NCBI RefSeq assembly: GCF_044324875.1
Contig: NZ_CP172188.1
Direction: 5' to 3' (one strand)
From: Escherichia coli
Lineage (GTDB): Bacteria > Pseudomonadota > Gammaproteobacteria > Enterobacterales > Enterobacteriaceae
DNA length: 64,000 nt
Shown piece by piece: positions 1 to 39,588 of the stretch (position 1 is its first letter; each line of letters opens with the position of its first letter). The position numbers were made by a program, and so were the translations under genes. The notes below the pieces were generated by a model. The model was not told the DNA's origin and ran no database searches. It worked only from the letters and a program-made list of their open reading frames with translations.

Positions 1-307
1 GGTAGAAACCGTCGAGCAAATCAAGAAAGGCAATATTCCGGAAGGCTACATTGGCTACCGCCAGCTGGCGGCGAAATGCGGCCTGACTGAAGCCAAATGT
101 CGCAACCTTGTCAACGCTTACCGGATTCCCACCGATACACATGAGTTTTTAACTCCAGAGGGGGTATTGTCGCGTCGTTCCATCGTGGCCTTATCTCCCT
201 TCATGAATGCTTTTAACCGGATGATGTCGGAGGCTGAACACCGAGGAAAACGCTGGTATCACCCCAAAATGGGGCAATTCCAGGTGATCGGTTGGGGAGG
301 TGAGTGA
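1..307 (+). CDS. Rha-family antirepressor-like protein, 5'-truncated by window edge (Ant paralog lacking fused C-terminal domain)
   Basis: Frame 2 reads VETVEQIKKGNIPEGYIGYRQLAAKCGLTEAKCRNLVNAYRIPTDTHEFLTPEG..., closely matching the central part of the ORFs at 38647..39588 and 62385..63305; ends at TGA 305..307. Confidence 0.6.
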   Translation, partial: VETVEQIKKGNIPEGYIGYRQLAAKCGLTEAKCRNLVNAYRIPTDTHEFLTPEGVLSRRSIVALSPFMNAFNRMMSEAEHRGKRWYHPKMGQFQVIGWGGE

Positions 308-504
308 TGGACATCATGCAGGCGGTAAAAAAAATCAGGGAAGGACAGGCTGAAGTGTGCCGCCGTAAAGCATGGAGTGTTGGTGTATGGGCCTGGCCTG
401 ATAATTACTCTACTACCGGATGGTTTTGTATTAATGGACTCCAGATCCGGGAAGTTGATTTATCGACGGCTGATATAGTCGGTAATGATTGGATCGTGAC
501 TTGA
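304..504 (+). CDS. small DUF2829/Tad2-like domain protein, stand-alone version of the domain fused to Ant in the other two copies
   Basis: 66 aa; GTG 304 / ATG 307 overlaps upstream stop (TGATG); motifs CRRKAWSVGVWAWP and C-terminal GNDWIV resemble DUF2829 (R-x-x-W ... DW-E/I-V). Confidence 0.45.
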   Translation: MMDIMQAVKKIREGQAEVCRRKAWSVGVWAWPDNYSTTGWFCINGLQIREVDLSTADIVGNDWIVT

Positions 505-1097: not shown

Positions 1098-4000
1098 GTG
1101 AAAATAACATTCTCCATACCCTCTCAACCGTACCGCATAGCGGATTTTTTACGGTTTAGAGGGGGTAATCCTTTGGATAAACTACTTCATTCAATCAGTG
1201 AAGCCTCCAGCTTAGGCGAACTGATTGAAATTGTTAGTCGGTTGCATAAATTACGTGCTGTTGCGACCTTTGGCGTTAAGAAAGTCGATGGTGTCAGCAT
1301 TCAAAAAACACGGCGGGCAGCAAACAACGCCGCAGTAGAGCTTCTTAATTCCCTTCCGCCCGGCTTCGATGGGGCGAAATTAACTGACGAACAACGTCAG
1401 ATTCTTGCCGGGTATACCGGTGAAGGCGGCCTGACAGATGGTGAGGGCAGCCAATACGAATACTACACACCACAGTTTATGGCTGAAGGTATATGGGATC
1501 TGTTTGCTGACTACGGTATTGATGGCGGGCACGTACTGGAACCATCAGCGGGCACAGGTATTTTCCAGGAGACAAAACGGCAGGGCATGATAATGACCAG
1601 CGCCGAACTATCTCCGATTTCCGGTCGAATAAACCAGCTTTTGCACCCGGAAGACGATGTGAATATCGGGGCGTTTGAGGCGCTGGCGGCGAAAGACGCA
1701 ATGTATGACCACGCTGTTGGTAACGTACCGTTTGGTGAAGGGCGTTCCGGCGTTGCCGGGCTTGATCCGGCATATGCAAACGAGAAGAACGTTGGCAATT
1801 ACTTTGTGCTGCGCACGATCGACAAGGTTAAGCCTGGTGGACTAATTGTATTGGTGGTGCCGAATGGCATGACCGATGGTACGAAATACAAAAAATTGCG
1901 CGATAAAGTCAGCCGTAAAGCGGAATTTTTGGGCGCACATCGTATGCCTTCTGGTACGTTCAGCGAATCCGGTACAGATACAGTGGTGGACGTATGGGTA
2001 TTGCGTAAACACCCGGAAACCTTCCTGGAGATGATCCCCGACACGGATGATGCAACGCTCAAGTCGGCAAACGTCCTTTGGGATACCTTCCTCAAAGGGA
2101 AATGGTTTACAACCGAAGGGAAGCGATTTGTTTACGGCGATATGGAGCGTACCAGCTTCCGCAATACCCTGGTGGTGAAAAAGGACGGTCGTGTATCCAA
2201 TGAGTCGATGAAAAACGCTCTATCGCGCCGCTTTGAAAGCCGCATTAATTGGGATTTGCTTGGCGTAACTACTCAGGCATGGCAGGGCGCGAAAGTGGGC
2301 GATAAACGCCTTGTAGGCGGCATCTGGCATGAGTTTGATGGCCTGAAATGGGTCAAGGACGCGACAACCAAATCCTCCGCGCTTGATGTAAATCGATATG
2401 GTGTTACGACGTTTGGTGATCTGCAGATCGCGTTTCAGTCAACAAATGGCATTCTGGCGTTGTCATGGGACCAGATATCGGCGATCGCGTCCGACTATCC
2501 GTCGGTTATCAGTGATGAAGTAGCGGCAATGATTCGCTTTGCTGGCAAGCAGAGAGAAAAAGACAGAGAACGCGTTATGCGCGGCGCACTGATAGGGCAG
2601 TTGATCAACAAGGCGCTTGATAAGCGTAATCTGGGGGAAAATGTTGATGATGAACTTGCTGATGCCGCGCGCCTGGCGGAAGCCGAAATTGCGAAGTATG
2701 GTCCGCCGCACGCGATTAAGCTGAATGGGATTGCTGAAGCTGGCGCTAAAAACTGGATGACTTTCACTGGCAACGTGAAACAGGACGGCTCTGCTTCTGA
2801 CCTCCTTGCTGGACGACTTGATGTAACGGATGGTGCTGCCGGTATTGACTTTACACGCCCGGAACAAGTTGTAACCCACCTTTTCAGTGACGTGGCACTT
2901 AATCCAATCACACTGGACGATTTTCGTGAGGCGTTTGCTGGCGAACTGCCAGAAGACGAAGATGCTGCTCTGGAATACCTGGCGAAATTTGATGATATCG
3001 CTATTGATGGGTATGGCTGCCTGCTGCCGATGGACCGCGCCACCAGCGGCGATATTGCAACCAAAACAGCATTGCTGGTGGGCTGGCGTGATGCGTCAAC
3101 AGGTGAGCAGAAAGCGAACTTTGAGCGTCAGTTGGCGAAAATCGAAGAGAAACGCATTTTCACGCCACTAAATAAAGTCACCGTTAATCTGAACGCCCGC
3201 TGGCTGGATCGCCGCTTGATAAAAGAGTTCCTGGCAGAGCAGGGCTATGACGAGTTTAAGTATACAGAACCCGACCTTAAGGTTGAGGACGGCATTCTGG
3301 TATCTCCGGACGATTACGAAGGTAAGGACGGGGTATTTACTGGCTATCAACTACGAACCGTAAACGGCAAAAACGGGAATGAGTTCAAGAAGGCCAACAA
3401 TAAAGACGGCTTCCTGAACCAGTTAGAAAACTACCTGAACGGCATTAAACCGCGTGGGCAGAACGCTAACGAGTACCTGGATAAGATTGCTCAACTGGAA
3501 ATTAGCTTCAACGACTGGTTACGCACTCACCCGCAGGCTGATCAGATAGCCCGCGACTATAACGACGCATTTAATGGCTTCATCCCGTTTACGCATTCTG
3601 ACGCACCGCTTGGCCTGGAGGGGATTAGTGGGAAGCGCATTCCTCTGACTTATCAGAATGAAGAAGTTCGGCGCTTGTCAGAAGATGGGCGCGGCATCAT
3701 GGGATTTGGTACCGGGCTGGGTAAAACCACGACCGCGCTTGCGCTTGAGGCGTATAACTTCGAAACAGGTCGCACTAAACGCACGTGTATTGTTGTTCCG
3801 AAGGCGGTTTATCAGAACTGGTATCACGAGGCACAGAGCTTCTACAGTGCTGATGCCTTCGCCAATATGATGTTTATCGGTCTGGATGAAGTTCGTGATG
3901 ACAGCGGAAATATTCTGACCGCGCCGGTGCTTGATGAAAATGGCGAACCACGCCTCGACAGTAACGGGCAGCCTCTTACCCGAAATGTTGTGAAAGAGTC

Positions 4001-7000
4001 CGCCAGCGCCGTTATCGTTCAGCGCATGAACATGATCCCGTCGTCAAATTGGCGAACGGTCATCATGACAAAAGAGCAATTCGCGTCTATCCCGCTACGA
4101 GAAGAAACCATTGAGGAAAACTCACAGCAAGCGGTCTTTAATGCTGTGGAAATGGGGCGTCTTGACCTGGCATCTGGCAAACACCGTGACGCGCAGAAGA
4201 AGAACAAGATTAAGGACCAGGCCGCAAATACCGGTACAACGAAGAAGCAGAATATCCCGTACTTTGAGGATATGAACTTCGATAGCGTAATTGCCGACGA
4301 AGGGCATAACTACCGCAACTCCTTTAGCGCCGGGCGCGAAGCGGGGCAACTGGCATATTTGCCTAACCCGGCAGTATCCAAAATGGCCCGCGACATGGCT
4401 GTAAAAGCTGCGTACATGATGAAACGCAACAACGGGCGTGGTGTGGTTATGCTGACGGCAACACCGCTGGTGAACAGCCCGATTGATGCTTTCAACATGC
4501 TGTCTACTGTCATTCCGCAGGAAGAGTGGATGCGCATGGGTATTGTTACGCCGGATGATTTCGTTCGCGTGTTCGGTAAAACAGCCACAGTTCAGGTTCA
4601 GAAAATTTCCGGTGAGGTGGAAGAGAAGCAGGGACTGGTGGGCTTCCAGAACCTGGATGGTCTGCGTGGTATTTTCCATCGCTGGACTACTCTGAAGACT
4701 GCTGCGGACGTCGGGGCGACGGTAAAAATCCCTGATATTGTCGAGAATACCTTGCAGATCCCGATGACAGGAGAGCAAGAGGCCATTTACGAAGAACTTC
4801 GTAAGCGTGCACAGGAGTTAAGTAGTAAAGATGCGCTGACGGTCGATGAAAACGGGCATATCACAAACGAAAAACCGGATGATTTCATCTTCTCCATCAT
4901 CCGCGACATGGATAAGGTTGCTATAGATCCTGATCTGTATGCCAGTGCGATTACATTCCAGTTCCCCGTTGAGCTTGCAGACAAGGTAAAAGCTATTGCT
5001 GATGCCCTGCCAAAAGTAGCTGGCGGTAAAGTGGCAGATGATGTAGACGAGGCCGAAGAAGATGGCGCTGGTGGGCTGGTCAGTACGCGTACCAGCAAGG
5101 TAGTGAAGACCACCTTTAGCGAACATCCGTCGCATGTTGAAATACGTGCTGGCATTGAACTGGAAGCTGAAATACTGAAGGCCATTGCGGCTGCCGGTAT
5201 TGATATGCAGCAGGTATCACACCCCATCCCGCCGAAGTATGCCGCGCTGATCGAAAACCTTCGTGAAGGTCTGAAGAACGGTAAACAAATCGTCTTCATT
5301 GATGAAAAAGCCCAGCACCAGAAGCTGCGCCGTATTATTGCCAGTGCACTGCAAATGCCGGAGCAGGAGATAGGCATTATCAATGCGACGACAGTTAGCC
5401 AGGCTGGCGGCGTCAAGCTGAAGAAGGTGAATAAGCCGACTGAACCTACGCCAAATAAAAACGGTGAATACAAAGAAGGTGCATGGGAAACCTACTACAG
5501 CAAACTTGCCCAATATGAGGATTATCTCTCAGCTAAAAATGATGCTGGCCTTGAGGGCATGGAAGGTATTGCCGCCGACTATAACGAAGGTCGCACGCGC
5601 ATCATAATCTGTAACAAGAAGGCTGAAGTAGGTATTAACTTGCACATCGGGACAACCGATATCCACCATCTGACACTACCCTGGACTCCTGCCAGTATCG
5701 ACCAACGTAATGGGCGCGGCGCTCGGGTAGGCTCACCACAAGAAAAGGTCAATGTTCACTACTATTGTGGCAAAGGCACATTTGATGACTTCCGTCTGGA
5801 TACGCTGAAACGTAAGAAGGACTGGATCAATATGGTGATGACCTCCGACATGTCAGAGATCGCCAATGGTGATGCGGATGACGCAGATGAACGCGCCATT
5901 ATGCTGGCGGCAAATCCGGAAGAACGCCGTGCAATCATGAGTCGTCAGGCGCAAGAGCGTGAAGAACGTCTGAAACTGAAAGCCCTACGCGAAGCCAATA
6001 ATGCTCTCGATAACTACCTGAAAGCGGCGAATGCTGCCGGGAAAGATATCGGCATGATGGAGACAGAACTGAAAAGCGCGATGGAGCAGGTAGAGCATTA
6101 CCAGCGCAATCTTGACGACCTGATTAAAGCGGGGACGAACAGGAACGGGCAGAAATATGTTCTGGAACAGTTGCGAGACTACAGAAAACGTGTGCGGGAG
6201 CTACGCTTTGCGATCACCAGAGCTAAAGACGCTGACACCGTTATGAAACGTTCTCGTGGTGATCTGGAACGTGCGATTAAAGCCGGGGTTCTGGAGCTTG
6301 ATGCCGATGTATTGCAGAACCCACAGGAGTATGTACGCACTGAGAAAAATATCTTGTTGCACAAGGGCAGCCATTATCGCGCGATCATCGATGAGAATCA
6401 CAATACGACAGCAATTGTTCGTGTTACCGCCATTGATGCGGAAAGGGGCGGGTGTACGTGCCGCATATCCTGGCTGGATGTGGCTAGTCGTTACTCTCGT
6501 TCTCCGGGGACGGCATTATTTTTGCCCTTTAACCTGATAATTGAATCGGTAACCTTTGAAGAGGGAGTTGCAGAATCGCGTGAAACAGCTGCACGTGGTG
6601 TTCAATGCCACCAGCTATCAACAACACTTACGCGCGATCAGTTCTATGATGCTATTCGCAATGGGGTAATGAATGTCACTGCCGGGAAGCCTAGTAGAGT
6701 ATGGGGCGGTGGTTCAGCTATTAAATACTGGGCTTATCGCACCGATGATGGTCAGATTGCACTGTCATCGGCTTATGATGGCGTAATAGGTCAAAAAATC
6801 GGGCGAGCATCGGATATAGCGCCTGAGCGGTGGATTTACCCTGATGGCAACGATGAGGCGCTGAAGCGTGAAGTGGCAAAAATACAAGCCAGTGATAACC
6901 CGCTGAATGTCGTGGACGGCGAGGGATTCCTCCAGGCATTGTATGGATATGATTACATCCAGGGAATGCAGGCATGGGGGTCACAGGCCACGATGGATGA

Positions 7001-8012
7001 TGTTTCCCAGGAGTTTGAAAACTGGATGGCAGGGCGTGGTTTGTCCGGTCGCTCACTTAATAAAGTTACTTCTGAAGATATTCTTAGCCTGTTCCGTAAA
7101 CCGTCCGGAGAAGGGCTGGAATCTTTCTGGAAGACCGTGGTGGCATACCGTTTATTCCAGGGCAGGATGAAAGCCTTTAGCAACACTGATGACATTGAAC
7201 GGATGTTTAATCAGGTGAAGGCCGCGAAAATTACGGCGAAAATTGAGAAAACACGAGCTGCGCTGGTGGCCTGGCGCGATGCATTGTTTGAGCAATATAA
7301 ATCACTCAGCGATGCCGATGGCTGGTCGGCATTGGAGCAGCTGGCTAATAATGGTGTCGATGGAGCGAAATTAGCCATTGTTCAGGCCGATAATCCTCTG
7401 GATTCGCCAGCAGCGCAGTGGATTAAGGTGGGGGCTGTCATCAATGCATTTGATGAAAAACACATTAGTAAGGACGATTTTGCTGATGCTGTTTCTGTTA
7501 ATCGCCTGGTAGAAATGGCTACCCGTCGCGCCCGTGAGTTGAAAGACGGCGACTATGTGAATGAGTTGCCGGATGCGCTCAAATCGGCAACGTGGCAGGA
7601 CTATGTATCGCTGAAAAACGGCGGGGCCACTGAATCAGAGATCGCGGAAAGGCTTGAGCAGGCTGAAAGCAAAAGAGAAGAGCAGGCGGCAGTGGCTGAA
7701 TCCAGAGCTGATGAAGCGGCGAATGATGACTATATCATTGTGGTTAATGATAAGCCGATTCGCGCTAAGGCGCGTGTTCGCGGGCGCTGGTGGAGCGTCA
7801 GCGAAGACGTTGGCGCGGTTTATCTCATTGCCGACCAGCCAGGTTCCTCGACAATACGGAACGCCAAAGACGCGATTAAGAAGATTGGCGGGCGTTTCTG
7901 GAATTTTGAAGCAAACCCGGTTGCTGATGTGAACTTTGACCGTCCGGCATGGATGGTATCTACGCGTTACTCGGTAGATGAACTGCGTAAAATAATCGCC
8001 GATGCGGCCTAA
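1098..8012 (+). CDS. darB: DarB-like giant antirestriction protein (N6-adenine DNA methyltransferase + SF2/SNF2-like helicase)
   Basis: 2304 aa single ORF; SAM-binding motif LEPSAGTGIF, catalytic-type motif NVPFG; helicase motifs GFGTGLGKTTT (Walker A), DEGHNYRN (DEAH-like), QRNGRGARVG (motif VI); size and domain order match phage P1 DarB. Confidence 0.8.
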   Translation: MKITFSIPSQPYRIADFLRFRGGNPLDKLLHSISEASSLGELIEIVSRLHKLRAVATFGVKKVDGVSIQKTRRAANNAAVELLNSLPPGFDGAKLTDEQRQILAGYTGEGGLTDGEGSQYEYYTPQFMAEGIWDLFADYGIDGGHVLEPSAGTGIFQETKRQGMIMTSAELSPISGRINQLLHPEDDVNIGAFEALAAKDAMYDHAVGNVPFGEGRSGVAGLDPAYANEKNVGNYFVLRTIDKVKPGGLIVLVVPNGMTDGTKYKKLRDKVSRKAEFLGAHRMPSGTFSESGTDTVVDVWVLRKHPETFLEMIPDTDDATLKSANVLWDTFLKGKWFTTEGKRFVYGDMERTSFRNTLVVKKDGRVSNESMKNALSRRFESRINWDLLGVTTQAWQGAKVGDKRLVGGIWHEFDGLKWVKDATTKSSALDVNRYGVTTFGDLQIAFQSTNGILALSWDQISAIASDYPSVISDEVAAMIRFAGKQREKDRERVMRGALIGQLINKALDKRNLGENVDDELADAARLAEAEIAKYGPPHAIKLNGIAEAGAKNWMTFTGNVKQDGSASDLLAGRLDVTDGAAGIDFTRPEQVVTHLFSDVALNPITLDDFREAFAGELPEDEDAALEYLAKFDDIAIDGYGCLLPMDRATSGDIATKTALLVGWRDASTGEQKANFERQLAKIEEKRIFTPLNKVTVNLNARWLDRRLIKEFLAEQGYDEFKYTEPDLKVEDGILVSPDDYEGKDGVFTGYQLRTVNGKNGNEFKKANNKDGFLNQLENYLNGIKPRGQNANEYLDKIAQLEISFNDWLRTHPQADQIARDYNDAFNGFIPFTHSDAPLGLEGISGKRIPLTYQNEEVRRLSEDGRGIMGFGTGLGKTTTALALEAYNFETGRTKRTCIVVPKAVYQNWYHEAQSFYSADAFANMMFIGLDEVRDDSGNILTAPVLDENGEPRLDSNGQPLTRNVVKESASAVIVQRMNMIPSSNWRTVIMTKEQFASIPLREETIEENSQQAVFNAVEMGRLDLASGKHRDAQKKNKIKDQAANTGTTKKQNIPYFEDMNFDSVIADEGHNYRNSFSAGREAGQLAYLPNPAVSKMARDMAVKAAYMMKRNNGRGVVMLTATPLVNSPIDAFNMLSTVIPQEEWMRMGIVTPDDFVRVFGKTATVQVQKISGEVEEKQGLVGFQNLDGLRGIFHRWTTLKTAADVGATVKIPDIVENTLQIPMTGEQEAIYEELRKRAQELSSKDALTVDENGHITNEKPDDFIFSIIRDMDKVAIDPDLYASAITFQFPVELADKVKAIADALPKVAGGKVADDVDEAEEDGAGGLVSTRTSKVVKTTFSEHPSHVEIRAGIELEAEILKAIAAAGIDMQQVSHPIPPKYAALIENLREGLKNGKQIVFIDEKAQHQKLRRIIASALQMPEQEIGIINATTVSQAGGVKLKKVNKPTEPTPNKNGEYKEGAWETYYSKLAQYEDYLSAKNDAGLEGMEGIAADYNEGRTRIIICNKKAEVGINLHIGTTDIHHLTLPWTPASIDQRNGRGARVGSPQEKVNVHYYCGKGTFDDFRLDTLKRKKDWINMVMTSDMSEIANGDADDADERAIMLAANPEERRAIMSRQAQEREERLKLKALREANNALDNYLKAANAAGKDIGMMETELKSAMEQVEHYQRNLDDLIKAGTNRNGQKYVLEQLRDYRKRVRELRFAITRAKDADTVMKRSRGDLERAIKAGVLELDADVLQNPQEYVRTEKNILLHKGSHYRAIIDENHNTTAIVRVTAIDAERGGCTCRISWLDVASRYSRSPGTALFLPFNLIIESVTFEEGVAESRETAARGVQCHQLSTTLTRDQFYDAIRNGVMNVTAGKPSRVWGGGSAIKYWAYRTDDGQIALSSAYDGVIGQKIGRASDIAPERWIYPDGNDEALKREVAKIQASDNPLNVVDGEGFLQALYGYDYIQGMQAWGSQATMDDVSQEFENWMAGRGLSGRSLNKVTSEDILSLFRKPSGEGLESFWKTVVAYRLFQGRMKAFSNTDDIERMFNQVKAAKITAKIEKTRAALVAWRDALFEQYKSLSDADGWSALEQLANNGVDGAKLAIVQADNPLDSPAAQWIKVGAVINAFDEKHISKDDFADAVSVNRLVEMATRRARELKDGDYVNELPDALKSATWQDYVSLKNGGATESEIAERLEQAESKREEQAAVAESRADEAANDDYIIVVNDKPIRAKARVRGRWWSVSEDVGAVYLIADQPGSSTIRNAKDAIKKIGGRFWNFEANPVADVNFDRPAWMVSTRYSVDELRKIIADAA

Positions 8013-8048: not shown

Positions 8049-8483
8049 ATGACGACACTAATTGACACTGTAAAACCGACGGAATCCTACCTTGAGGAAA
8101 TCTTGCCGCAGGCACTCAATGGCAGGAGTGAAGAAGAATACCTGACAGTTTATCTTGATGGCATGGTAGAAAGGCTGAAGAAAAATCCACAGCTTTATCA
8201 CCTTTATGGTCCGTGGTGGCCCGCGCTCAAAACGATATTGCTGGAGCGCGGCGACATATCATTTGGACAAGTTGTAGATAGTGATGTGGCAGAGATCTAC
8301 AAAATGAGTCGCCCGGCGCTTACGGTTTTGGCTGGGCATCTGTATTCGAGCGATCGCCTGGAAAATGACGCGGTATACAATCCCGTTCATGCTCTGGAAG
8401 TCGCACCTTATGCTGATGATACAGAGCCATACGTGTACACAAGTTACGACGAGTCAATAGAGAAATATCGAATCATGGGGTAG
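8049..8483 (+). CDS. hypothetical protein
   Basis: 144-aa ORF, ATG start, co-directional and tightly spaced after darB. Confidence 0.5.
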   Translation: MTTLIDTVKPTESYLEEILPQALNGRSEEEYLTVYLDGMVERLKKNPQLYHLYGPWWPALKTILLERGDISFGQVVDSDVAEIYKMSRPALTVLAGHLYSSDRLENDAVYNPVHALEVAPYADDTEPYVYTSYDESIEKYRIMG

Positions 8484-9391: not shown

Positions 9392-9592
9392 TTGCGTTTA
9401 CTTAACGTGGCTGAACTTATCCCTGCTGGTGCTAACGTTGTTGCTCGCCGTCGTTCCTGGCAGCAACCATTGTGTGTTGAGTTGTTGAAACACAGCAATG
9501 GAACAATAGAGGCTCGGAATATTGTCACTGGTGATAAGGTTCACATTACCCCGGAAAGTACAGGCGCTGATGATTGGGAGTTTGTACATTGA
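9392..9592 (+). CDS. small DUF2829/Tad2-like protein
   Basis: 66 aa, TTG start with GAGAAA RBS; VVARRRSWQQP ... ADDWEFVH. Confidence 0.4.
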   Translation: MRLLNVAELIPAGANVVARRRSWQQPLCVELLKHSNGTIEARNIVTGDKVHITPESTGADDWEFVH

Positions 9593-12451: not shown

Positions 12452-12528
12452 GATGGTGTAGCTCAGTAGGATAGAGCAGCAGCCTTCTAAGCTGTCGGTC
12501 GGTGGTTCGAATCCACCCACCATCGCCA
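12452..12528 (+). tRNA. tRNA-Arg (anticodon TCT)
   Basis: 77 nt; 7-bp acceptor stem GATGGTG/CACCATC, D-arm GCTC..GAGC, anticodon loop CTTCTAA, T-arm GGTGG TTCGAAT CCACC, encoded CCA. Confidence 0.9.
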
Positions 12529-12530
12529 AT

Positions 12531-12606
12531 GCCGGTTTAGCTCAGTTGGTAGAGCGCCTGCCTTGTAAGCAGGATGTCAGCGGTTCGAGTCCGTTAACCG
12601 GCACCA
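12531..12606 (+). tRNA. tRNA-Thr (anticodon TGT)
   Basis: 76 nt; acceptor GCCGGTT/AACCGGC, anticodon loop CTTGTAA, T-loop TTCGAGT, encoded CCA; P1 also carries a tRNA-Thr. Confidence 0.9.
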
Positions 12607-12608
12607 AC

Positions 12609-12694
12609 ACAACAGGTAAGGGTATTTTGCGACGTCGGAGATCGCCGTGCTTGGCAGAGGGTTCGAATCCCTACGAAGTACCCTTACCGTTGTG
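12609..12694 (+). other. tRNA-like remnant / structured element: 15-16 bp stem enclosing a T-loop-like GGTTCGAATCC
   Basis: ACAACAGGTAAGGGTA ... TACCCTTACCGTTGTG inverted repeat; no canonical D or anticodon arm identifiable. Confidence 0.25.
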
Positions 12695-13071
12695 ATGAAG
12701 TGCAGCTCTTTGAAGCAACCAGAAGATAAGCATCTGGCTTCACAACATAAACCGCAGGAACGACCAATAAACGGTAGTCCGTATGGAGAATACCCCGTTG
12801 AGGAAGAGGCCTGGCCGGAACCGTAACCGGCACTACAACGTTGAGAACACTGACGTAACGGGGTCATATCCCAATCTACGAATAAATGTTGCGTTGCAGC
12901 GTGACAACCAGTGTTCTCAACGTTGTGGTGGATTCGCAGACTGATGCGATAGCTTTCTTGGATGTTAGGGAAATGCGGCCGCAAACCTTCCCTTTCGCGA
13001 GCGGTGATCGTCCGTAGTCCTAATTGGCTGCACCGTATGCCGGAGATTCAGTACCGGCCACCACAACGGCC

Positions 13072-13158
13072 GGAGAGTAGGGAGCATGGTGCTCAAGCGG
13101 TCTTGAAAACCGTCCCATTGCGCAAGCGATGATGGTTCGATTCCATTACTCTCCGCCA
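13072..13158 (+). tRNA. atypical type-II (long variable arm) tRNA-like gene, anticodon possibly TGA (Ser-like); may be a pseudo-tRNA
   Basis: 87 nt; acceptor GGAGAGT/ACTCTCC, anticodon stem-loop GCGGT-CTTGAAA-ACCGT, T-arm GATGG TTCGATT CCATT, discriminator G + CCA; D-arm irregular. Confidence 0.4.
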
Positions 13159-13561
13159 TCGCAACGTTAAGAGTATTTGGCTAATTAAGCGAATGCCGGA
13201 AGCAGAACCGGATCAACAAATGCGTACAGGCGTCATCGCCGCCCAGCCAGCCAAGTGCTCTTACCATTGCGGTGAATGCGGCTAAGCGCACGCGGAACAG
13301 TTAAAACAATCCTGCTTACTAAACATCCCGGCGTTAATTGTTAACTGGTTAACGTCACCTGGAGGCACCAGGCACCGCAATCTAACAGCAATGGCGTTTT
13401 GTCTTAAAAGGTAGCTGCAAGTGATGGATTTTTGGGCCTTTGCCGATAAGAACCCTGGTTGGACATTTTTATTTCTGCTGGTGGTTGCATATGGGATCGA
13501 GCAAGCGGCAAAAGCCTTACGCGGTTCTGGCAAAAAGCGTAAGCGGAATTAACAGTAATCT

Positions 13562-13637
13562 GGCCCTTTAGCTCAGTGGTTAGAGCTGGCGACTCATAAT
13601 CGCACGGTCACCGGTTCAAGTCCGGTAGGGGCCACCA
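13562..13637 (+). tRNA. tRNA with CAT anticodon, most likely tRNA-Ile2 (lysidine type) rather than elongator Met
   Basis: 76 nt; GGCCCTT acceptor, anticodon loop CTCATAA, T-loop TTCAAGT; resembles enterobacterial ileX-type tRNA as I recall it; P1 also encodes a tRNA-Ile. Confidence 0.85.
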
Positions 13638-14090: not shown

Positions 14091-14666
14091 ATGTTAACGG
14101 CGAACGATAACGCGTATGCAGAAGCAGATCTCATATTGAGTGACTTCATCGGTCAGCGGGAACGCTGGACACAAAAGCGAGAGGAACTTTATGCCTCGTT
14201 AGTTCGCAAAGGTGTCAACATTGAAACCGCTCAAAGCGGCGATATGACGGTAGTCAGTGTTGGATTACATGGTGTGAGCGTGTCCGCAGCCAATCATGAG
14301 CCATACGTAGCGTTATCCGAGTCGATGGCAAGGCTAATTAAGTTTCTGAAGCAAACAGAAGCCAATAATGTTTTCATCGCCAAAAAGAACATCAATTTTT
14401 CTGCCGCCATGTTCTGGATGATGAAGGGGCTGGATGCCCGCCGGGCATCATGGCCTAAAGGGAGCTATTTATCGATGTTCCGTGGCAGCATTGGCAGCAA
14501 AGAAAAGCTCTTCGAATTCTTGCCGGAAGAGGCATTCGATATTGTGGAAGGGTGCGATGTGATGGTTATGCCTCGCCTGGTAATGATGAATGGGGATTTA
14601 CAGGCGCAGACAGACTGGTTCGCAACTGGCGTGGATATTATCGCAACTGACTGGGAGGCATTCTGA
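14091..14666 (+). CDS. hypothetical protein with C-terminal DUF2829/Tad2-like domain
   Basis: 191 aa; C-terminal LDARRASWPKGSYL ... IIATDWEAF. Confidence 0.5.
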   Translation: MLTANDNAYAEADLILSDFIGQRERWTQKREELYASLVRKGVNIETAQSGDMTVVSVGLHGVSVSAANHEPYVALSESMARLIKFLKQTEANNVFIAKKNINFSAAMFWMMKGLDARRASWPKGSYLSMFRGSIGSKEKLFEFLPEEAFDIVEGCDVMVMPRLVMMNGDLQAQTDWFATGVDIIATDWEAF

Positions 14667-18453: not shown

Positions 18454-19491
18454 TTACCAGAGTTTAGCGGCGTGCTGTGTTTGGGAGAAAGTGAACCCGT
18501 AACGTTCTTCTATGGTTTTACCGTATCTTTTCCGCGCGTCTGTCAGTTTTATGCCTGTCAGGTCATCTCCGGATGTCATCATTACGTCTAACAACTCCAG
18601 ATCCATTTTATTCAGTCGCGCCATCGCTTCGCGTGCTGTCTGTATTTTACGCTCAATGATATGGCGAATAGCCGGATCGGCTTCCTCAAGCATTTTGGCT
18701 GATTTGTTCTTTAAGCTCTCATTGCGGATGTCGATGTTTCGCAAGATGTATGACTTCGCAACATAGCTTGGTTGGTGTTTCTCCAGATCGCGAACGCGAT
18801 AGAGACTAAAGTCACCAAGCAGGCCGCAAGGTATCGACTCAACCCCAGAATAAATAGTAATGCTGCGACGTTCGCCGACATTATTAACAACGGGCACTGT
18901 GGTGTTCGGAAGTTTTGCGAACACTAAGGCTCCGTGTGCGCCTACCCTGAATCGTGACAGAGCATTGCTGCCTTCAATGTTTGTTGTAAGCACTACATCT
19001 GTGTATCCATCTTTGCGCGCCCGGTAAACTTCCCCTTCAGGTTCTGATGCGAAAAAACGGCGCTCTTCTTCAAGTGCACCAACAATCTGCGAAAATATCT
19101 TGTTTTTCAGGCTTTTCTTTATAATTGCATCATATTTTTTGAGCAGATTTTCGCGCGTAAATGAGCGGGTGGTGGTCGCGCTTTGCACAACAATATGCGT
19201 GCTTTGATTTGTGTCCTCGATAATGAATGGGATCGGAGAATATACAGACTCAACAATGTTAGACGCTTTGCCGTCAGCGTTACGGCACAAGTCAACAAAG
19301 GCTTTCCATTCTGTGAGGCACTTTTCAGCTTCTTCTAGCACATTCTGATCATGTGTTAGTGCAACATGGCGGAATTCCTCGCCGGCATAACTGGTATCAT
19401 GGAAAACAGAGTTTGCGACCACCAGCTCTTTCCACCGTTCAGCGGTTTGCAGGAACCGTTTGTACTCTTTCTCGATCGACTTCTTACTCAT
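18454..19491 (-). CDS. candidate C1-like master repressor (by position and operator cluster; sequence not confirmed)
   Basis: 345 aa; convergent with pacB as c1 is in P1; its upstream region 19504..19700 carries 2-3 operator-like motifs. Confidence 0.35.
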   Translation of the reverse strand: MSKKSIEKEYKRFLQTAERWKELVVANSVFHDTSYAGEEFRHVALTHDQNVLEEAEKCLTEWKAFVDLCRNADGKASNIVESVYSPIPFIIEDTNQSTHIVVQSATTTRSFTRENLLKKYDAIIKKSLKNKIFSQIVGALEEERRFFASEPEGEVYRARKDGYTDVVLTTNIEGSNALSRFRVGAHGALVFAKLPNTTVPVVNNVGERRSITIYSGVESIPCGLLGDFSLYRVRDLEKHQPSYVAKSYILRNIDIRNESLKNKSAKMLEEADPAIRHIIERKIQTAREAMARLNKMDLELLDVMMTSGDDLTGIKLTDARKRYGKTIEERYGFTFSQTQHAAKLW

Positions 19492-19691: not shown

Positions 19692-19725
19692 CTAACTTTA
19701 GATAATTGGCATTATTTAAAGTTAG
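19692..19725. other. lox-like 34-bp recombination site (13-bp inverted arms, 8-bp spacer)
   Basis: CTAACTTTAGATA-ATTGGCAT-TATTTAAAGTTAG; arms differ at one position; 9 of 13 arm positions shared with loxP ATAACTTCGTATA; 150 bp upstream of the Cre-like gene. Confidence 0.55.
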
Positions 19726-19876
19726 GCTATAATTATGGGTAGATGATCAGTATTGACATCACTGAAAATACGTGCCTCGAATCAAAGGCTTGAATCTTGA
19801 AAATTAACTTATAGCTACCCTGTCATTTTTATATTTTTCGCGTAGCGTCATCTGTATATAGAGGTTAAATAGTTTC

Positions 19877-20905
19877 ATGAGTGAATTAATTATCTCTGGC
19901 AGCTCCGGTGGTTTTCTGCGCAACATTGGCAAAGAGTACCAGGAGGCCGCAGAAAACTTTATGCGGTTCATGAATGACCAGGGGGCTTACGCGCCGAATA
20001 CTTTGCGCGATCTCCGGTTAGTGTTTCACTCCTGGGCGAGATGGTGTCACGCTCGCCAGCTCGCCTGGTTCCCGATCTCACCAGAGATGGCCCGCGAGTA
20101 TTTTCTTCAGCTGCATGATGCTGATCTGGCTTCGACCACCATTGATAAGCACTACGCCATGCTTAACATGCTGCTTTCGCATTGTGGCCTTCCGCCACTT
20201 TCGGATGATAAAAGTGTTTCTCTGGCTATGCGGCGCATCCGGCGTGAAGCGGCAACTGAAAAAGGCGAACGAACAGGCCAGGCTATACCGCTGCGGTGGG
20301 ACGATCTGAAACTGCTCGACGTCCTGTTGTCCAGGTCAGAACGGCTGGTGGACCTGCGCAACCGGGCTTTTCTCTTTGTTGCATACAATACGCTGATGCG
20401 TATGTCGGAAATCTCGCGTATTCGTGTAGGAGATCTGGATCAAACAGGTGACACTGTCACGCTACATATTTCACACACGAAGACAATAACGACCGCCGCC
20501 GGGCTTGATAAGGTGCTTTCCCGTCGCACTACCGCTGTGCTGAATGACTGGCTGGATGTTTCCGGGCTTCGCGAACATCCTGACGCAGTGTTGTTCCCGC
20601 CGATACACCGTAGCAATAAGGCCAGGATCACGACAACGCCCCTTACTGCACCTGCAATGGAGAAAATATTCAGCGACGCCTGGGTGTTGCTGAATAAAAG
20701 AGATGCTACGCCAAACAAAGGAAGATACCGGACGTGGACCGGGCATAGTGCACGCGTCGGGGCCGCTATTGATATGGCTGAAAAGCAGGTGTCTATGGTG
20801 GAGATCATGCAGGAAGGAACCTGGAAGAAACCGGAAACACTTATGCGGTATCTTCGCCGTGGCGGCGTGTCTGTGGGGGCTAATAGCCGCCTGATGGATT
20901 CGTAA
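19877..20905 (+). CDS. cre: Cre-family tyrosine recombinase
   Basis: 342 aa; blocks resembling P1 Cre as recalled: MLNMLLSHCGLPPLSDDKSVSLAMRRIRRE, DLRNRAFLFVAYNTLMRMSEISRIRVGDL, WTGHSARVGAAIDMAEKQVSMVEIMQEGTWKKPETLMRYLR (R-H-R-Y region). Confidence 0.85.
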   Translation: MSELIISGSSGGFLRNIGKEYQEAAENFMRFMNDQGAYAPNTLRDLRLVFHSWARWCHARQLAWFPISPEMAREYFLQLHDADLASTTIDKHYAMLNMLLSHCGLPPLSDDKSVSLAMRRIRREAATEKGERTGQAIPLRWDDLKLLDVLLSRSERLVDLRNRAFLFVAYNTLMRMSEISRIRVGDLDQTGDTVTLHISHTKTITTAAGLDKVLSRRTTAVLNDWLDVSGLREHPDAVLFPPIHRSNKARITTTPLTAPAMEKIFSDAWVLLNKRDATPNKGRYRTWTGHSARVGAAIDMAEKQVSMVEIMQEGTWKKPETLMRYLRRGGVSVGANSRLMDS

Positions 20906-20922
20906 ATTAAAATTCTAACACA
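20905..20922 (-). promoter_or_regulatory. operator-like motif copy (reverse strand TGTGTTAGAATTTTAATT)
   Basis: Upstream of the 20979..24600 operon. Confidence 0.45.
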
Positions 20923-20978
20923 TCTTTTTAGATTAACGCCTTTGCTGTAAAGTACCCTCGCCTATTTAGGAGGGTGCT

Positions 20979-21323
20979 TTGCAGAGTCAAATCACGGAAT
21001 CAAGACGCTTCAAGGTGGATGGTTACACCGTAACCTTCGCCGCTGGTGTTAAGAACAGTCATGCTGTCGTTGTGTTCGGCATCATGACCGGGCTTGAGGC
21101 CGTCCCTGTGTTTACCCTCGAAAAAAACTGGCGAAATCTGGAGGAAGCAGAAAGCTACGTCCGGAAAGTAACCATCATTGCCGCCGAAAAACTCCTGGCC
21201 CACTATCAGGAAAATTATCGCACTATGGTCGAGAAGATTAATCTCGCTTTCACTCGCCCCACTACCGGCTTTATTGCACCGGATACTAATGCCGGTCGAT
21301 ATCCTGCAAGGGGGCGTCGGTGA
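20979..21323 (+). CDS. hypothetical protein
   Basis: 114 aa; TTG start with strong RBS TAGGAGGG. Confidence 0.45.
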   Translation: MQSQITESRRFKVDGYTVTFAAGVKNSHAVVVFGIMTGLEAVPVFTLEKNWRNLEEAESYVRKVTIIAAEKLLAHYQENYRTMVEKINLAFTRPTTGFIAPDTNAGRYPARGRR

Positions 21324-21796
21324 AAACTTATTACCCATCTCTGAATTGTTACCCGTCTTCCTATCCAGAATTATCCGGGAAGCTGTTAGCTCTATTAGCT
21401 AAAGCACCTACGGAATGGTTTAAGCCAGTCGTTATCAATCCACACTTCCTGGGGTACGGATCTGTTCGCACTCGTAACGAACTCAAAAACCTACTGGCGC
21501 ATGGATTCATTCGACACCGTGCCGGGAAAGGCTATCAGTTAGCGATTGCGCCAGAAGAGGCCGTGCGGCTATTCGCATATCGTGACAGCCAGACAAAAGC
21601 TCGGGTAATAGCTCAAATACTTCATAACGGCAGCACCTATGCCCGCCAGTTTGGCGGCGACACGTCGCAGTTCTTGCGGGCGGTGCGATCGCTGGAGGAG
21701 CAAGGAGTTATTGAAAGTTCCTGTCTTCCTGTTCCTACCGTTCCACATATCAAACGTCGGGTTTACACCTTCACGCAGAGAGCTAAAAAACAATGA
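21320..21796 (+). CDS. hypothetical protein
   Basis: 158 aa; GTG start overlapping upstream stop (GTGA). Confidence 0.45.
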   Translation: MKTYYPSLNCYPSSYPELSGKLLALLAKAPTEWFKPVVINPHFLGYGSVRTRNELKNLLAHGFIRHRAGKGYQLAIAPEEAVRLFAYRDSQTKARVIAQILHNGSTYARQFGGDTSQFLRAVRSLEEQGVIESSCLPVPTVPHIKRRVYTFTQRAKKQ

Positions 21797-22287
21797 TTTA
21801 CGTAAAAGTGAAACGCCTACATCCGGCAGCAAAACTTCCAGCTTATGCCACCTCCGGATCGGCGGCGATGGATTTTGAGGCTGTTGAAATAAAACCATGC
21901 GTCGATAGCAATGGTGCAATTTCCTCAAGCTGGTGGGTGTATACCGGACTGGCTATGGAGATCCCGCCCGGCTGGTGTCTGAAACTCTATCCGCGATCAG
22001 GATTGGGCTGCAAAAAACATACTCGCCTGGCTAACTGCGTAGGAATTATCGACTCCGATTATCGCGGCGAAATCATGGCAAAACTGATTACTGATCCAGG
22101 CGGGGAAGGCGTTTGTCTCAAGCCTGGAATGGCTGTCATGCAAGGAATTTTTGAGCGTGTTGAACAAGTCTCACTAGTCGAGGTTGAGGAACTCAACGAA
22201 ACGGAGCGTGGTGCTGGTGGCTTTGGTAGCACATCGGAAGGCCACTTTGAAATTAAGCGTTCACCGCTTCAGTACGAAAAGTTATAA
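21793..22287 (+). CDS. dut: dUTP diphosphatase (dUTPase) family protein
   Basis: 164 aa; motif YPRSGLG and motif G-x-ID-x-DYRGE (GIIDSDYRGE). Confidence 0.75.
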   Translation: MIYVKVKRLHPAAKLPAYATSGSAAMDFEAVEIKPCVDSNGAISSSWWVYTGLAMEIPPGWCLKLYPRSGLGCKKHTRLANCVGIIDSDYRGEIMAKLITDPGGEGVCLKPGMAVMQGIFERVEQVSLVEVEELNETERGAGGFGSTSEGHFEIKRSPLQYEKL

Positions 22288-22301
22288 GCAGAGAAAAGAC
22301 T

Positions 22302-22742
22302 ATGAATAACATGGCAACGAAAGAGCTTTTTAAGTTCCGTCCCAAATACAAAGCTCACAAAAAAAATGGAACCACGGTCATCATTACGGATGACAACGGC
22401 GTGATGATTAATCTTACCGGGAGCGTAACTATTTCTGCTGGTGGCATCACCACCCAGCAAGAAGAAATCGACCTTGAAGCAGCCGACTTTTCAGACGCGC
22501 TGATGTGGCTGAAGGAAGGCAAGAAAGTTGCTCGACGCGGGTGGAACGGCGAAAACCAATTCTGCTGGCTGGTTCCTGAAGGACAGTACCCGGCACGAAT
22601 GGAAGCCATTAAGGGATATTTCCCCGGCGACCTCGTTCCGTATGGTGCTTATTTCGCCTTAAAAAATGCACAAGGTGTAGTTGTTCCGTGGGTGCCTTCA
22701 GTTGGCGACCTGCTGGCCTGTGACTGGTTTGTTGTGGAGTGA
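22302..22742 (+). CDS. DUF2829/Tad2-like domain protein (candidate signalling-nucleotide sponge)
   Basis: 146 aa; C-terminal LMWLKEGKKVARRGWNGENQFCWLV ... PWVPSVGDLLACDWFVVE. Confidence 0.55.
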   Translation: MNNMATKELFKFRPKYKAHKKNGTTVIITDDNGVMINLTGSVTISAGGITTQQEEIDLEAADFSDALMWLKEGKKVARRGWNGENQFCWLVPEGQYPARMEAIKGYFPGDLVPYGAYFALKNAQGVVVPWVPSVGDLLACDWFVVE

Positions 22743-22748
22743 TTTGAC

Positions 22749-23516
22749 ATGGAAAGCACTAAAACAATTCAATACCGCTTGCGTAATGGCCTGCTGGTGG
22801 CTGTTAACGCCGACATGTCACTGCCGTTTGACACGATTGAACGCACTATCATGACGTATCTCGGCTTTAATGAAGAGCTGAATGAAGAGCATGGCGTAGC
22901 TATATGGAGTGATGCAGACAGCGGCGTTCGTCGTTACATCACCGCCAGGGGCAAAGACTACTCTCTGGAAGAACTGTTTGCCCTTGCGCAGTCTTTCGAA
23001 TGTGTAGCATTAGACCTGTTTAATGATCCTGCTATAGCGCAACGACTTATACGCGAGCTTGGGCTATCCGTTACACCAATTATATTTAAAAATGGCAGCC
23101 TGACTGGCACATGGCGCGTAGAACGCATCTCAAACTACCTTCCATATAACCGACAGTTAAATGGAGTAATCTCCGGCGTTAACCAGCCCGTAGCGTGTGA
23201 AAATGTAAACCTGGTTGTCGCTGTTTTGGCAACCGCATGTCGTGTTATCGGTTTGGCTAAACAGGCATTTATTCATTTCCCAAATGGTGCAGAAGGTAGC
23301 GCAGAGATTATCGCGTGTGATTTCGAATTTACCTGGATGCTACGCGAATATCTGGACCAAACAGTATTCCGTGCCGAAGAACTGGATATGTATATCACGT
23401 CAACGATTCCAGACGATGTGCGAGCTGAAGCAATCGCTACAGCCAGGGCGAAATGCCGTGCGGCGATTGCAGAACAGGCCAAAGAAGAAGTTAAGGAAGT
23501 GGCAGATGGCGACTAA
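22749..23516 (+). CDS. hypothetical protein
   Basis: 255-aa ORF in the same operon. Confidence 0.5.
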   Translation: MESTKTIQYRLRNGLLVAVNADMSLPFDTIERTIMTYLGFNEELNEEHGVAIWSDADSGVRRYITARGKDYSLEELFALAQSFECVALDLFNDPAIAQRLIRELGLSVTPIIFKNGSLTGTWRVERISNYLPYNRQLNGVISGVNQPVACENVNLVVAVLATACRVIGLAKQAFIHFPNGAEGSAEIIACDFEFTWMLREYLDQTVFRAEELDMYITSTIPDDVRAEAIATARAKCRAAIAEQAKEEVKEVADGD

Positions 23517-24600
23517 GAGCAATATTTATAAAGATCCGCGCTGGCTGTCGCTGGTGGAGAAATATAAAGACAATTGGGTACTGGCAGCAAAAGAATTGTT
23601 TGATATTGATTTAAGCCACCAGCAACAACAAATTGTTGAAGCTATACAGCCCAATAATGCAAAAGCTACTGTCACCACTCCGTATGGGATCGGACGACCG
23701 CAAGTGCTTGCTGTTATTAGTACCCTTTATACGATTATGTATCCTGATTCCCGGACAGTAATTGTTTATCCAAAATCAAATGTTTGCAAAAGAGGAATTG
23801 TTGCATATGTGTGGCAATGTTGGGAGGCATTGCTGAAAAAACAACCTTTTATCATTGAGTATTTTAAGGTCGGTGATAGCGGTCTGATGTTCAATGAATT
23901 TTGGGGAATGTGCTTTTGTAACTTCCGCCTTAACTATGAAGATAGCATTGCAGGTCACTACGCCGACCATCTTTTATTCATTATTGTGGATTCCGCACAT
24001 ATCAGCGATCGGGCATACAGCATTGTGTGGGCAAGCATGACTAGTGGTGATTCACGCATATTGCTCACTTCAATTCCGTCACCAGAGGAAATAGGCTTTT
24101 TTTATGATTCACATCATGGACGTGCTTTAGCTGAAGATAATCCGAGTGGTGTATATAAAGCCATTAAGCTGAGTGCGGAGGATTCACCATTTATTACCCA
24201 AGAATATCTTGATCATTTTGCCGAAAGGTATGGCGGGCGAAATAGTGATGACTATCGTCGTATGATTCTTGGTGAGTTCCCTGGTATTAGGGAGGCTGTT
24301 CTTGAATCAGATATGCCGAAGACAATGCGCTTTTCGATGCCTGATGGTAGTGAATGGACAATACCATTACGAGTGATAGCCCGGCATCATGCGCAGCACC
24401 ACGCCAAAAAACATGGCGTCACGACATTAGAATGGTTGAAATCGCACACCATTCCACTCTTCACTGCAGATCACAATGCTATCGTTGAGTGGGCAAAAAC
24501 AATTCCGTGGGAGAATGTCGCTGAATACGCCCACATGCTAAAACCGCCGAAAGACAGGCAAGAAATTAGCTGGCTGACAGCAGAAAAAATCATTGAGTGA
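23506..24600 (+). CDS. terminase-large-subunit ATPase-domain paralog with degenerate Walker motifs and no nuclease domain
   Basis: 364 aa from ATG 23506 (RBS AAGGAAG); aligns to PacB-like 16920..18428 (DPRW..KY, SHQQQ, YDSHH, DNP, YGGR, FPG) but Walker A GHGTGKS becomes PYGIGRP and Walker B ILDEAS becomes IIVDSA. Confidence 0.65.
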   Translation: MATKSNIYKDPRWLSLVEKYKDNWVLAAKELFDIDLSHQQQQIVEAIQPNNAKATVTTPYGIGRPQVLAVISTLYTIMYPDSRTVIVYPKSNVCKRGIVAYVWQCWEALLKKQPFIIEYFKVGDSGLMFNEFWGMCFCNFRLNYEDSIAGHYADHLLFIIVDSAHISDRAYSIVWASMTSGDSRILLTSIPSPEEIGFFYDSHHGRALAEDNPSGVYKAIKLSAEDSPFITQEYLDHFAERYGGRNSDDYRRMILGEFPGIREAVLESDMPKTMRFSMPDGSEWTIPLRVIARHHAQHHAKKHGVTTLEWLKSHTIPLFTADHNAIVEWAKTIPWENVAEYAHMLKPPKDRQEISWLTAEKIIE

Positions 24601-24606
24601 TAGTAA

Positions 24607-24636
24607 GAAGCCCGCCTGGTTGAGCGGGCTTCTTTT
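24607..24636. terminator. hairpin terminator between convergent genes
   Basis: GAAGCCCGCCTGGTTGAGCGGGCTTCTTTTC. Confidence 0.6.
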
Positions 24637-25237: not shown

Positions 25238-25309
25238 AAACACCTCGTGTACTCGTTATGTGTACACAATTATAAACTTCACAGGCATAAAGCACCAGCA
25301 CTTTGCAGC

Positions 25310-25699: not shown

Positions 25700-25717
25700 A
25701 GCGTTTTACCTCAATGA

Positions 25718-38431: not shown

Positions 38432-38647
38432 ATGGCTACTATCCCTACCCCAACTCATTCTGAATTTATCTGGCGTTTCTATTCCTGCCAAAAACACCTG
38501 TATATCTGCGTCATGGCTGCAACCGAAGCAGAAGCTCGTTCATACCTTCCTGAAGAACCCTGCATTTTTGCCGCACGCTTCACTCTTGATGCGATGGAGA
38601 TCCTCAATTACTGGAATCTGCCAATGAACTGCGTGGAGGTGCACTGA
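38432..38647 (+). CDS. Icd-like small protein (module A)
   Basis: 71 aa; paralog of 62161..62385 (shared SEFIWRF, QKH, AATE-EARS); stop overlaps ant start (TGATG) as for icd-ant coupling in P1. Confidence 0.5.
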   Translation: MATIPTPTHSEFIWRFYSCQKHLYICVMAATEAEARSYLPEEPCIFAARFTLDAMEILNYWNLPMNCVEVH

Positions 38648-39588
38648 TGAATCTGTCCATCTCTCAAAAAGCGACAATGACCAGCATTGAGATCGCGGAA
38701 CTGGTAGGAAGTCGCCAAGATAGTGTGAAGAGAACTATCGAAACACTGGCTAAAAAGAGTGTGATCCAATTTCCACAATCTGTGGAAATTGAAAATAAAC
38801 AATCAGTTGGCCCTCGTCGATTTTCCAAGGCTTACATCTTTGAAGGCGAACAAGGCAAGCGCGATAGTATCATTGTCGTCGCACAGCTCTCTCCGGAATT
38901 CACCGCCCGGCTGGTGGACCGCTGGCGCGAACTGGAGAATGCCAGGGGACCGTTAAAATCAAAAGCCGAAATCCTGGCTGAAATGGCGCAAATGCATCTT
39001 GAGCATGAACGCCGGATCAACGCCGTAAATGCCCAGGTAGCCGAGGTATCAGCACAAGTATCGATGGTCGCTGAAACACTCGAGCAAATAAAGAAAGGCA
39101 ATATGCCGGAAGGCTACATTGGCTACCGCCAGCTGGCGGCGAAATGCGGCCTGACTGAAGCCAAATGTCGCAACCTGGTTAACGCTTACCGGATACCCAC
39201 TGATACGCATGAGTTTTTGACTCCCGACGGTTTGCTTGCGCGACGCTCAATTGTGGCCCTGGCCCCCTTCCGGAAAGCCTTTAAGCAGGTTATGTCGGAG
39301 GCAGAACCACGCAACAAACGCTGGTATCATCCAAAGATGGGGATGTTTCAGGCAATCCACCATCCTGTGCCTGAAAGTCCAAAGGCAAACCTGTCGTTGC
39401 ATACCGCCAGAGAGAGGATTAAAACAGGGTATGCAATCGTATGCCGTCGAGCATCTTGGCCTGAAGGTGTATGGGTATGGCCCGAAGGTGGATCACGAAA
39501 GCACTGGCGCACTATCCGGGATGGGAAAATCCATGCGATTGATTTAGCTCCAGAGGATGTTGTTGCTACGGACTGGATTGTTAGTTAA
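38647..39588 (+). CDS. antirepressor-like protein: Rha-family N-terminal domain fused to DUF2829/Tad2-like C-terminal domain (module A)
   Basis: 313 aa; N-terminal MTSIEIAELVGSRQDSVKRTIE; C-terminal CRRASWPEGVWVWPEGG ... DLAPEDVVATDWIVS. Confidence 0.65.
   Translation: MNLSISQKATMTSIEIAELVGSRQDSVKRTIETLAKKSVIQFPQSVEIENKQSVGPRRFSKAYIFEGEQGKRDSIIVVAQLSPEFTARLVDRWRELENARGPLKSKAEILAEMAQMHLEHERRINAVNAQVAEVSAQVSMVAETLEQIKKGNMPEGYIGYRQLAAKCGLTEAKCRNLVNAYRIPTDTHEFLTPDGLLARRSIVALAPFRKAFKQVMSEAEPRNKRWYHPKMGMFQAIHHPVPESPKANLSLHTARERIKTGYAIVCRRASWPEGVWVWPEGGSRKHWRTIRDGKIHAIDLAPEDVVATDWIVS

Follow-up and report, generated by a model that had tools for sequence, protein, structure and literature searches.

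Does a single phage-plasmid carry six sponges for the signalling molecules of bacterial defence, or does one recurring sequence motif gather proteins of different kinds? The question is raised by a stretch of 64,000 nucleotides from Escherichia coli (contig NZ_CP172188.1 of the RefSeq assembly GCF_044324875.1), the whole of which is called the window below, and in which an earlier note had read six recurring DUF2829/Tad2-like domains as a diversified set of ligand sponges. Going by nucleotide identity and gene order, the window is a D6-like (P1-family) phage-plasmid. It is 92-97% identical to Escherichia phage D6, a P1-family plasmid prophage, and it follows the order of the D6 annotation through darB, ulx, pmgM/R/S, the tRNAs, lpa, pacA/B, c1, dre (cre-like), dut, doc/phd, ant, GlnRS and the tail genes. 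All six copies are present, and they are not equivalent: they represent three grades of the Tad2/DUF2829 fold. One of them is a probable sponge and one a possible sponge, while the other four, most of which are tied to the antirepressor Ant, are better described as minimal relatives, so that only a part of the "six sponges" stands.

The count of six is borne out. We searched all stop-to-stop segments of at least 35 amino acids in the six reading frames, 978 in total, with the pattern R[RK]x1-2W ... [DN]W, the latter part near the C-terminus. Six segments matched, and these are precisely the six Tad2-like copies; the chance expectation from residue-shuffled segments is 0.115 matches on average, with a maximum of one in 200 shuffles. 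The R-x-x-W and D-W signature is invariant in all six. The four copies that had been listed as stand-alone open reading frames (ORFs) were all found where they had been placed and with the residues quoted for them, each preceded by a Shine-Dalgarno-like site. As for the copies said to be fused in the ant genes, they make up the C-terminal 65 residues of two Ant proteins. The six copies are encoded as follows.

22302..22742, plus strand: canonical Tad2-family protein of 146 amino acids, with a 61-residue N-terminal extension followed by the DUF2829 domain in residues 62-146 (nucleotides 22485..22739)
14091..14666, plus strand: protein of 191 amino acids whose C-terminal residues ~102-191 (nucleotides 14394..14663) form a divergent DUF2829 domain
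304..504, plus strand: minimal protein of 65/66 amino acids with a predicted Tad2-like fold, phrog_7385
9392..9592, plus strand: minimal protein of 66 amino acids with a predicted Tad2-like fold, phrog_7206, between a VRR-NUC (pmgM-like) gene and a pmgR-like gene
38647..39588, plus strand: Ant antirepressor of 313 amino acids with an N-terminal Rha domain and the minimal domain in residues 249-313 (nucleotides 39391..39585); an icd-like gene, 38432..38647, lies upstream
62385..63305, plus strand: second full-length Ant paralog, 306 amino acids, with the minimal domain in residues 242-306 (nucleotides 63108..63302); an icd-like gene, 62161..62385, lies upstream

The gene at 22302..22742 is, by its family matches, known biology: its product falls in a family that is known and has been annotated before. 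Residues 62-145 match positions 2-73 of the 73 positions of the PF11195 (Tad2-like) model with an E-value of 9.5e-23, and a phmmer search against the PDB sequences returned ModTad2 (9eib/8v3e, E~1e-20), HgmTad2 (8kbi, 4e-11), AcrIIA7 (9kzr) and SPO1 Tad2 (8sme, E~1e-9). The domain is 48% identical to ModTad2 and 36-37% identical to SPO1 Tad2 (36%) and HgmTad2. In SPO1 Tad2 (gp34.65; 8sme/8smf/8smg) the ligand is contacted by W25, N26, W73, S76 and D79, in a gcADPR pocket that draws on two protomers. The equivalent residues of HgmTad2 are W21/N22 and W87/S90/T92/D93, and the W21A/N22A and S90A/T92A/D93A substitutions markedly reduced binding. All five residues (in SPO1 numbering, as used throughout) are kept in the 22302 protein, the only copy in the window to have the complete set, and the WN...WxPSxxD signature is intact. 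The spacing between the two anchors of the motif is 48 residues, compared to 47 in ModTad2 and SPO1 Tad2, and the β2-β3 insertion is present.

Homologs of this domain are widespread, with 3,167 clusters at 50% identity (E<=1e-3) and matches in 191 phage records, SPO1 included. A C-terminal domain behind an N-terminal extension is the usual architecture, the median extension being 71 amino acids for the domain hits in the 150 listed representatives; ModTad2, on the other hand, is an 89-residue domain alone, without the 61-residue extension of the 22302 protein. The D6 ortholog, orf114, has the same short form of 146 amino acids at 98.6% identity and is labelled "DUF2829 domain-containing protein" in RefSeq. 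In the P1-like phage RCS47 the homolog is interrupted and annotated as split ("part 2 | inverted repeat").

What might the 22302 protein bind? Tad2 homologs are known to differ in their ligand, which can be gcADPR, His-ADPR or a cyclic dinucleotide. In HgmTad2/AcrIIA7 (8kbi, 9kzr) it is an insertion of 41 residues that forms the cGG/cGAMP pocket. The insertion of the 22302 protein is of the SPO1/ModTad2 size, too short for a cyclic-dinucleotide pocket (35-41 residues), and binding of cyclic dinucleotides is thus not predicted. The closest solved and characterised relative of the domain is ModTad2, from a Myroides odoratus prophage, which agrees with the domain in insertion length and pocket signature; it sequesters His-ADPR and blocks type II Thoeris. 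By this analogy the 22302 protein is a probable sponge, most likely for His-ADPR (type II Thoeris), with gcADPR as a possible ligand.

The protein encoded at 14091..14666 is, judged by its profile matches, a family member with a partly altered pocket. Its C-terminal ~90 residues match positions 2-72 of 73 in PF11195 (E=4.5e-9), and the protein is also found at E=1e-4 by the DUF2829 hidden Markov model (HMM) built in this analysis. W25, W73 and D79 are kept in its pocket, with the changes N26 to P, S76 to T and T78 to V; the insertion is present and slightly longer, with an anchor spacing of 54. The relatives of this protein are few. Among the PDB sequences SptTad2 alone was returned, at E=0.74; among the PHROG families it matches phrog_7362, and weakly phrog_1048 and phrog_872; no relatives of its N-terminal 100 residues were detected in these searches, and the protein as a whole is confined to D6-type elements. 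It is a possible sponge.

The four short copies, that is, the 304 and 9392 ORFs and the two Ant C-termini, form the third grade. Exactly 26 residues lie between their R-x-x-W and D-W anchors, as against 47-65 in the solved Tad2 proteins. Compared to SPO1 Tad2 they lack residues 36-59, which is the entire β2-β3 insertion with α2, as well as N26 and W73. W25 is kept in all of them; D79 is lost in 9392 and still present in the 304 ORF and the Ant C-termini. The PF11195 search that the earlier note had proposed as a check gives a divided answer: the 22302 and 14091 proteins pass it well, while the 304 ORF, although aligned along the whole model, reaches only E=0.073, no match was obtained for the 9392 ORF and the Ant C-terminus (the Ant protein 38647..39588 matches Phage_pRha, PF09669, at E=8.6e-6 and nothing else), and none of 12 members of the short families has E<=0.001. 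For our own DUF2829 HMM, 154 domain hits were taken from the 150 listed representatives. Run on all 978 segments of the window, it likewise found only the 22302 and 14091 proteins; the E-value for the 304 ORF was 1.7, and at E<=10 neither the 9392 ORF nor either Ant C-terminus was listed. Simple profile searching can thus not support the short copies. An alignment profile of the short families, searched against the PDB sequences, gave nothing significant, with Tad2 at E~2 and over the C-terminus only, and word-indexed homolog searches brought up very close relatives only. Since the profile test failed and two defining structural features are missing, we do not file the short domain as a Tad2-family member and call it Tad2-core-like.

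More sensitive comparisons do connect these copies, both to one another and to Tad2. The 304 ORF shares 40-42% identity with the Ant C-termini; between the 9392 family and the 304/Ant C-terminal family an alignment was found with a probability of 81% (E=1e-5), and an Ant C-terminus matches phrog_7206 over its full length (E=0.087). Another family, phrog_643, matches the 304 ORF end to end (E=0.088) and also the canonical 22302 protein (E=0.0016). This family is labelled "transcriptional regulator"; it may be a bridge, as a minimal Tad2-like family, and the label perhaps comes from Ant fragments. When a combined profile of the short families was aligned to the DUF2829 alignment, the score was 22.5 (P=6e-4), compared to a mean of 10.2 and a maximum of 21.5 for 150 column shuffles; the reversed control scored far lower.

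The predicted structures point, in part, in the same direction. AlphaFold (AF2) models built without templates reached a pLDDT of 81.7 for the 304 ORF and 84.9 for the 9392 ORF, and both have the order α1-β1-β2-β3-β4-short helix-β5, which is the published Tad2 topology minus α2. In a Foldseek search of the whole PDB with the 304 model, the top 16 matches were all chains of SPO1 Tad2 or ModTad2, SPO1 Tad2 being the first, with probabilities up to 0.93 and a TM of ~0.5. Two different programs, applied to the two models, each rank Tad2 structures first in the PDB. Taken together, these comparisons make it likely that the short copies are remote relatives of Tad2 that have kept the core only. A minus-strand ORF at 9398..9589 was also considered as the real gene at the 9392 locus and was rejected: the plus-strand ORF has a GGAG site 8 nucleotides before its start and belongs to a block of co-directional genes, and its motif is kept in homologs at 36-79% identity.

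Both full-length Ants match phrog_63 over their whole length and to the last profile position (E=3e-60 and 3e-64), and the last ~50 positions of this profile of Rha/Ant-type phage antirepressors (PF09669, phrog_63) correspond to the minimal domain. They also match phrog_7385, the match in Ant 38647..39588 covering residues 252-312, and the icd-like genes upstream match phrog_1426; by these matches the proteins belong to the Ant/Rha family. A Tad2-like character is not known to have been ascribed to the C-terminal domain of any Ant. A third Ant locus, at the edge of the window, gives a further view of this arrangement:

2..307, plus strand: Ant antirepressor gene of which the 3' end falls inside the window, the remainder lying beyond its start; as the translation shows, it has no fused C-terminal domain

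Here the Ant gene ends just before the domain, which has an ORF of its own, the 304 ORF. This ORF probably starts with the ATG at 307, which stands behind a GGAGGTGA Shine-Dalgarno site and shares the sequence TGATG with the stop codon of Ant. From this gene arrangement, the 304 ORF is a split-off Ant C-terminal domain, a classic fission with translational coupling; D6 has the same layout in its orf18/orf17. Three of the four short copies therefore belong to Ant genes (two by fusion, the third as the split-off domain), which makes it improbable that they are free sponges. The domain linked to Ant most likely works together with Ant, in oligomerisation or in partner binding. Among the 150 best DUF2829 representatives no match to the Ant N-terminus was found, and fusions of a canonical DUF2829 domain to Ant are not evident.

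In all, the window has three icd-like + ant (immI-type) modules (2..307, 38432..39588 and 62161..63305), compared to two in the D6 reference. The module at 62161..63305 lies where D6 has only hypothetical ORFs; its absence from D6 at that position accounts for one extra fused copy in the window. All the other copies have direct orthologs in D6 (NC_050154), namely orf114, orf6, orf11, orf17 and the Ants orf18/orf82, at 92-100% identity. The short families are essentially limited to D6-like plasmids of ~90 kb, found in Escherichia, Salmonella and Shigella and in a few cases in Enterobacter; they occur in 123 plasmid records (the 304/Ant C-terminal family) and 119 (the 9392 family), and among phage records only in D6. 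One plasmid hit, H62, a frameshifted copy, was left out of these comparisons, and L006 has an in-frame stop. Most plasmids have two copies of the Ant type, and some have three or four, as the window does. In the 119 D6-like plasmids the 9392 ORF is found in a conserved block between the VRR-NUC (pmgM-like) and pmgR-like genes.

We consider it reasonably probable, then, that one joint explanation covers all six copies, with one Tad2-family protein, one divergent DUF2829 domain and four core-only copies that are mostly modules of Ant. This explanation is built on family memberships, residue conservation, fission and fusion architecture, and fold predictions; the oligomeric state, the ligands and all biological activity are what it proposes beyond them. 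The Tad2 homotetramer consists of two V-shaped dimers, each packed via α2 and β2. By inference from these solved homologs the 22302 product would assemble as a homotetramer, and its inter-protomer pockets (W25/N26 together with W73/S76/D79) would sequester an ADP-ribose-derived alarm molecule made by a TIR protein, so that the Thoeris effector would never be activated. The 14091 domain, with its partly altered pocket, may bind a different ligand or none. The four copies of 65 residues would keep nothing but the core α1-β1-β2-β3-β4-α3-β5 with R-x-x-W ... D-W, and those linked to Ant would act as an accessory module of the antirepressor (oligomerisation or partner binding) and not as free nucleotide sponges. 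Several points weigh against this explanation. Compared to the 225-residue P0009, the 22302 protein has an in-frame deletion (residues 21-99, ~79 residues), although its domain is intact. The pocket residues cannot tell the ligands apart, because ModTad2 keeps them yet does not block type I Thoeris. The comparison of structures, which had been suggested together with the Pfam check, is divided between the two models, as Foldseek returned Tad2 with the 304 model and no Tad2 with the 9392 model. Both AF2 models come from a shallow, overlapping alignment of 9-12 sequences and are hence not independent, and the modelled targets were 304 and 9392; the Ant C-termini entered as rows of the input alignment and are tied to the fold via their identity to 304. 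Finally, the role of accessory module, most likely as it is, is drawn from gene architecture.

It is against this background that the other explanations should be judged. The one closest to the earlier note, that all six copies are functional small-molecule sponges with diversified ligands and make up a multi-sponge arsenal against host defence, could appeal to the shared R-x-x-W and D-W, of which W25 is a ligand-stacking residue in SPO1 Tad2, and to D79, kept in the 304 ORF and the Ant C-termini. The gcADPR pocket is made of core elements (the β1-β2 loop, the β4-α3 loop and α3) which the short models retain, and variation of ligand is known among Tad2 homologs. We nevertheless find it quite improbable, because the short copies lack N26 and W73, the contacts which the ligand receives from both protomers, and the insertion which forms both the V-dimer interface and the cyclic-dinucleotide pocket; moreover, three of the four are parts of Ant proteins, and none of the four reaches significance in Pfam. 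A stronger case can be made for the opposite explanation, in which the short copies have no homology to Tad2: they would be a small α+β domain specific to D6-type elements with a function in partner binding or oligomerisation of Ant, the RRxW...DW motif would be convergent, and the window would have just two DUF2829 proteins. Even so it is rather unlikely, given that Tad2 structures come out on top of the PDB in each of two programs applied to the two models, that sequence alignments place the signature residues at anchor positions that match, that the profile-profile score lies above all 150 column shuffles, and that the 304 ORF is aligned over its whole length by Pfam as well as by phrog_643. 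The 22302 gene, for its part, might be a decaying, inactive remnant, as the in-frame deletion relative to the 225-residue form and the interrupted homolog in RCS47 would suggest. This we regard as very improbable: the deletion takes away a part of the N-terminal extension only and leaves the DUF2829 domain and its pocket residues complete, the short form is conserved in D6, and the solved, active Tad2 proteins are the domain alone, 88-104 amino acids in length. There is also a bolder idea for the insertion-less domain linked to Ant, by which it would be a small-molecule sensor and not a sponge, binding a nucleotide of the host immune or stress response and gating the antirepressor; we give it hardly any chance.

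The canonical gene has neighbours that deserve a brief account. It lies in the following unit, which was outlined from a promoter and terminator scan, the ORF map and the D6 annotation:

19706..24629, plus strand: putative operon that includes the canonical gene

Its co-directional genes are the dre recombinase, two ORFs of no known function, a dUTPase, the DUF2829 gene, an isaA-like gene and an ORF of 364 amino acids, between a strong promoter-like site (19706..19733) and a terminator-like hairpin (24614..24629), both of which are consensus matches and no evidence of function. The 364-residue ORF (~23506..24600, plus strand), 3' of the isaA-like gene, belongs to phrog_5902 and has a weak similarity to the ATPase region of terminase large subunits. 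It falls within the part of 20000-26000 that does not align to D6, and the D6 annotation has no matching gene at that position. Searches of NCBIfam and PADLOC with all copies and their neighbours returned nothing meaningful. A c1-like repressor gene is present at 18454..19491, and the P1 C1-operator consensus, ATTGCTCTAATAAATTT, has zero matches in the whole window at up to 3 mismatches, so that C1-controlled early expression cannot be argued. The absence of P1-type operator sites alongside a c1-like gene is consistent with a different immunity specificity.

Elsewhere in the window, a DarB-like protein of 2,304 amino acids is encoded at 1098..8012 (plus strand); in the D6 annotation it is a member of the DEAD/DEAH box helicase family with similarity to P1 darB. 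The next gene, at 8049..8483, is an Ulx-like anti-restriction gene, which makes for a second anti-defence locus, unrelated to the Tad2-type genes. ARAGORN found four tRNA genes at 12452..13637 (plus strand), Arg-tct, Thr-tgt, Ser-tga and Met-cat, a set that differs from the Ser, Thr and Asn tRNAs annotated in the equivalent region of D6. A full-length ORF at 55316..56977 (minus strand) fits D6 orf62, a phage glutaminyl-tRNA synthetase (GlnS-like), in size and position, and is putatively assigned as such.

The canonical gene by itself adds little to what is known, as Tad2 homologs are widespread in phages and prophages and the D6 gene already bears the DUF2829 label. The more useful result is the negative one: counting motifs alone would inflate one canonical, one divergent and four minimal copies into "six sponges". 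The insertion-less variant linked to Ant is the only mildly new element. It is a fold without annotation (phrog_7385 and phrog_7206, with no Pfam family) that has been recruited as the C-terminal domain of an antirepressor, and if experiments were to confirm the remote homology, the Tad2 fold would have gained a new context. Should the improbable sensor function turn out to be true, it would couple the detection of a defence signal to the lysis-lysogeny switch of the phage-plasmid. And if the 22302 protein is indeed a sponge, then P1/D6-type phage-plasmids of E. coli and Salmonella would carry an anti-Thoeris sponge, probably one of the His-ADPR clade.
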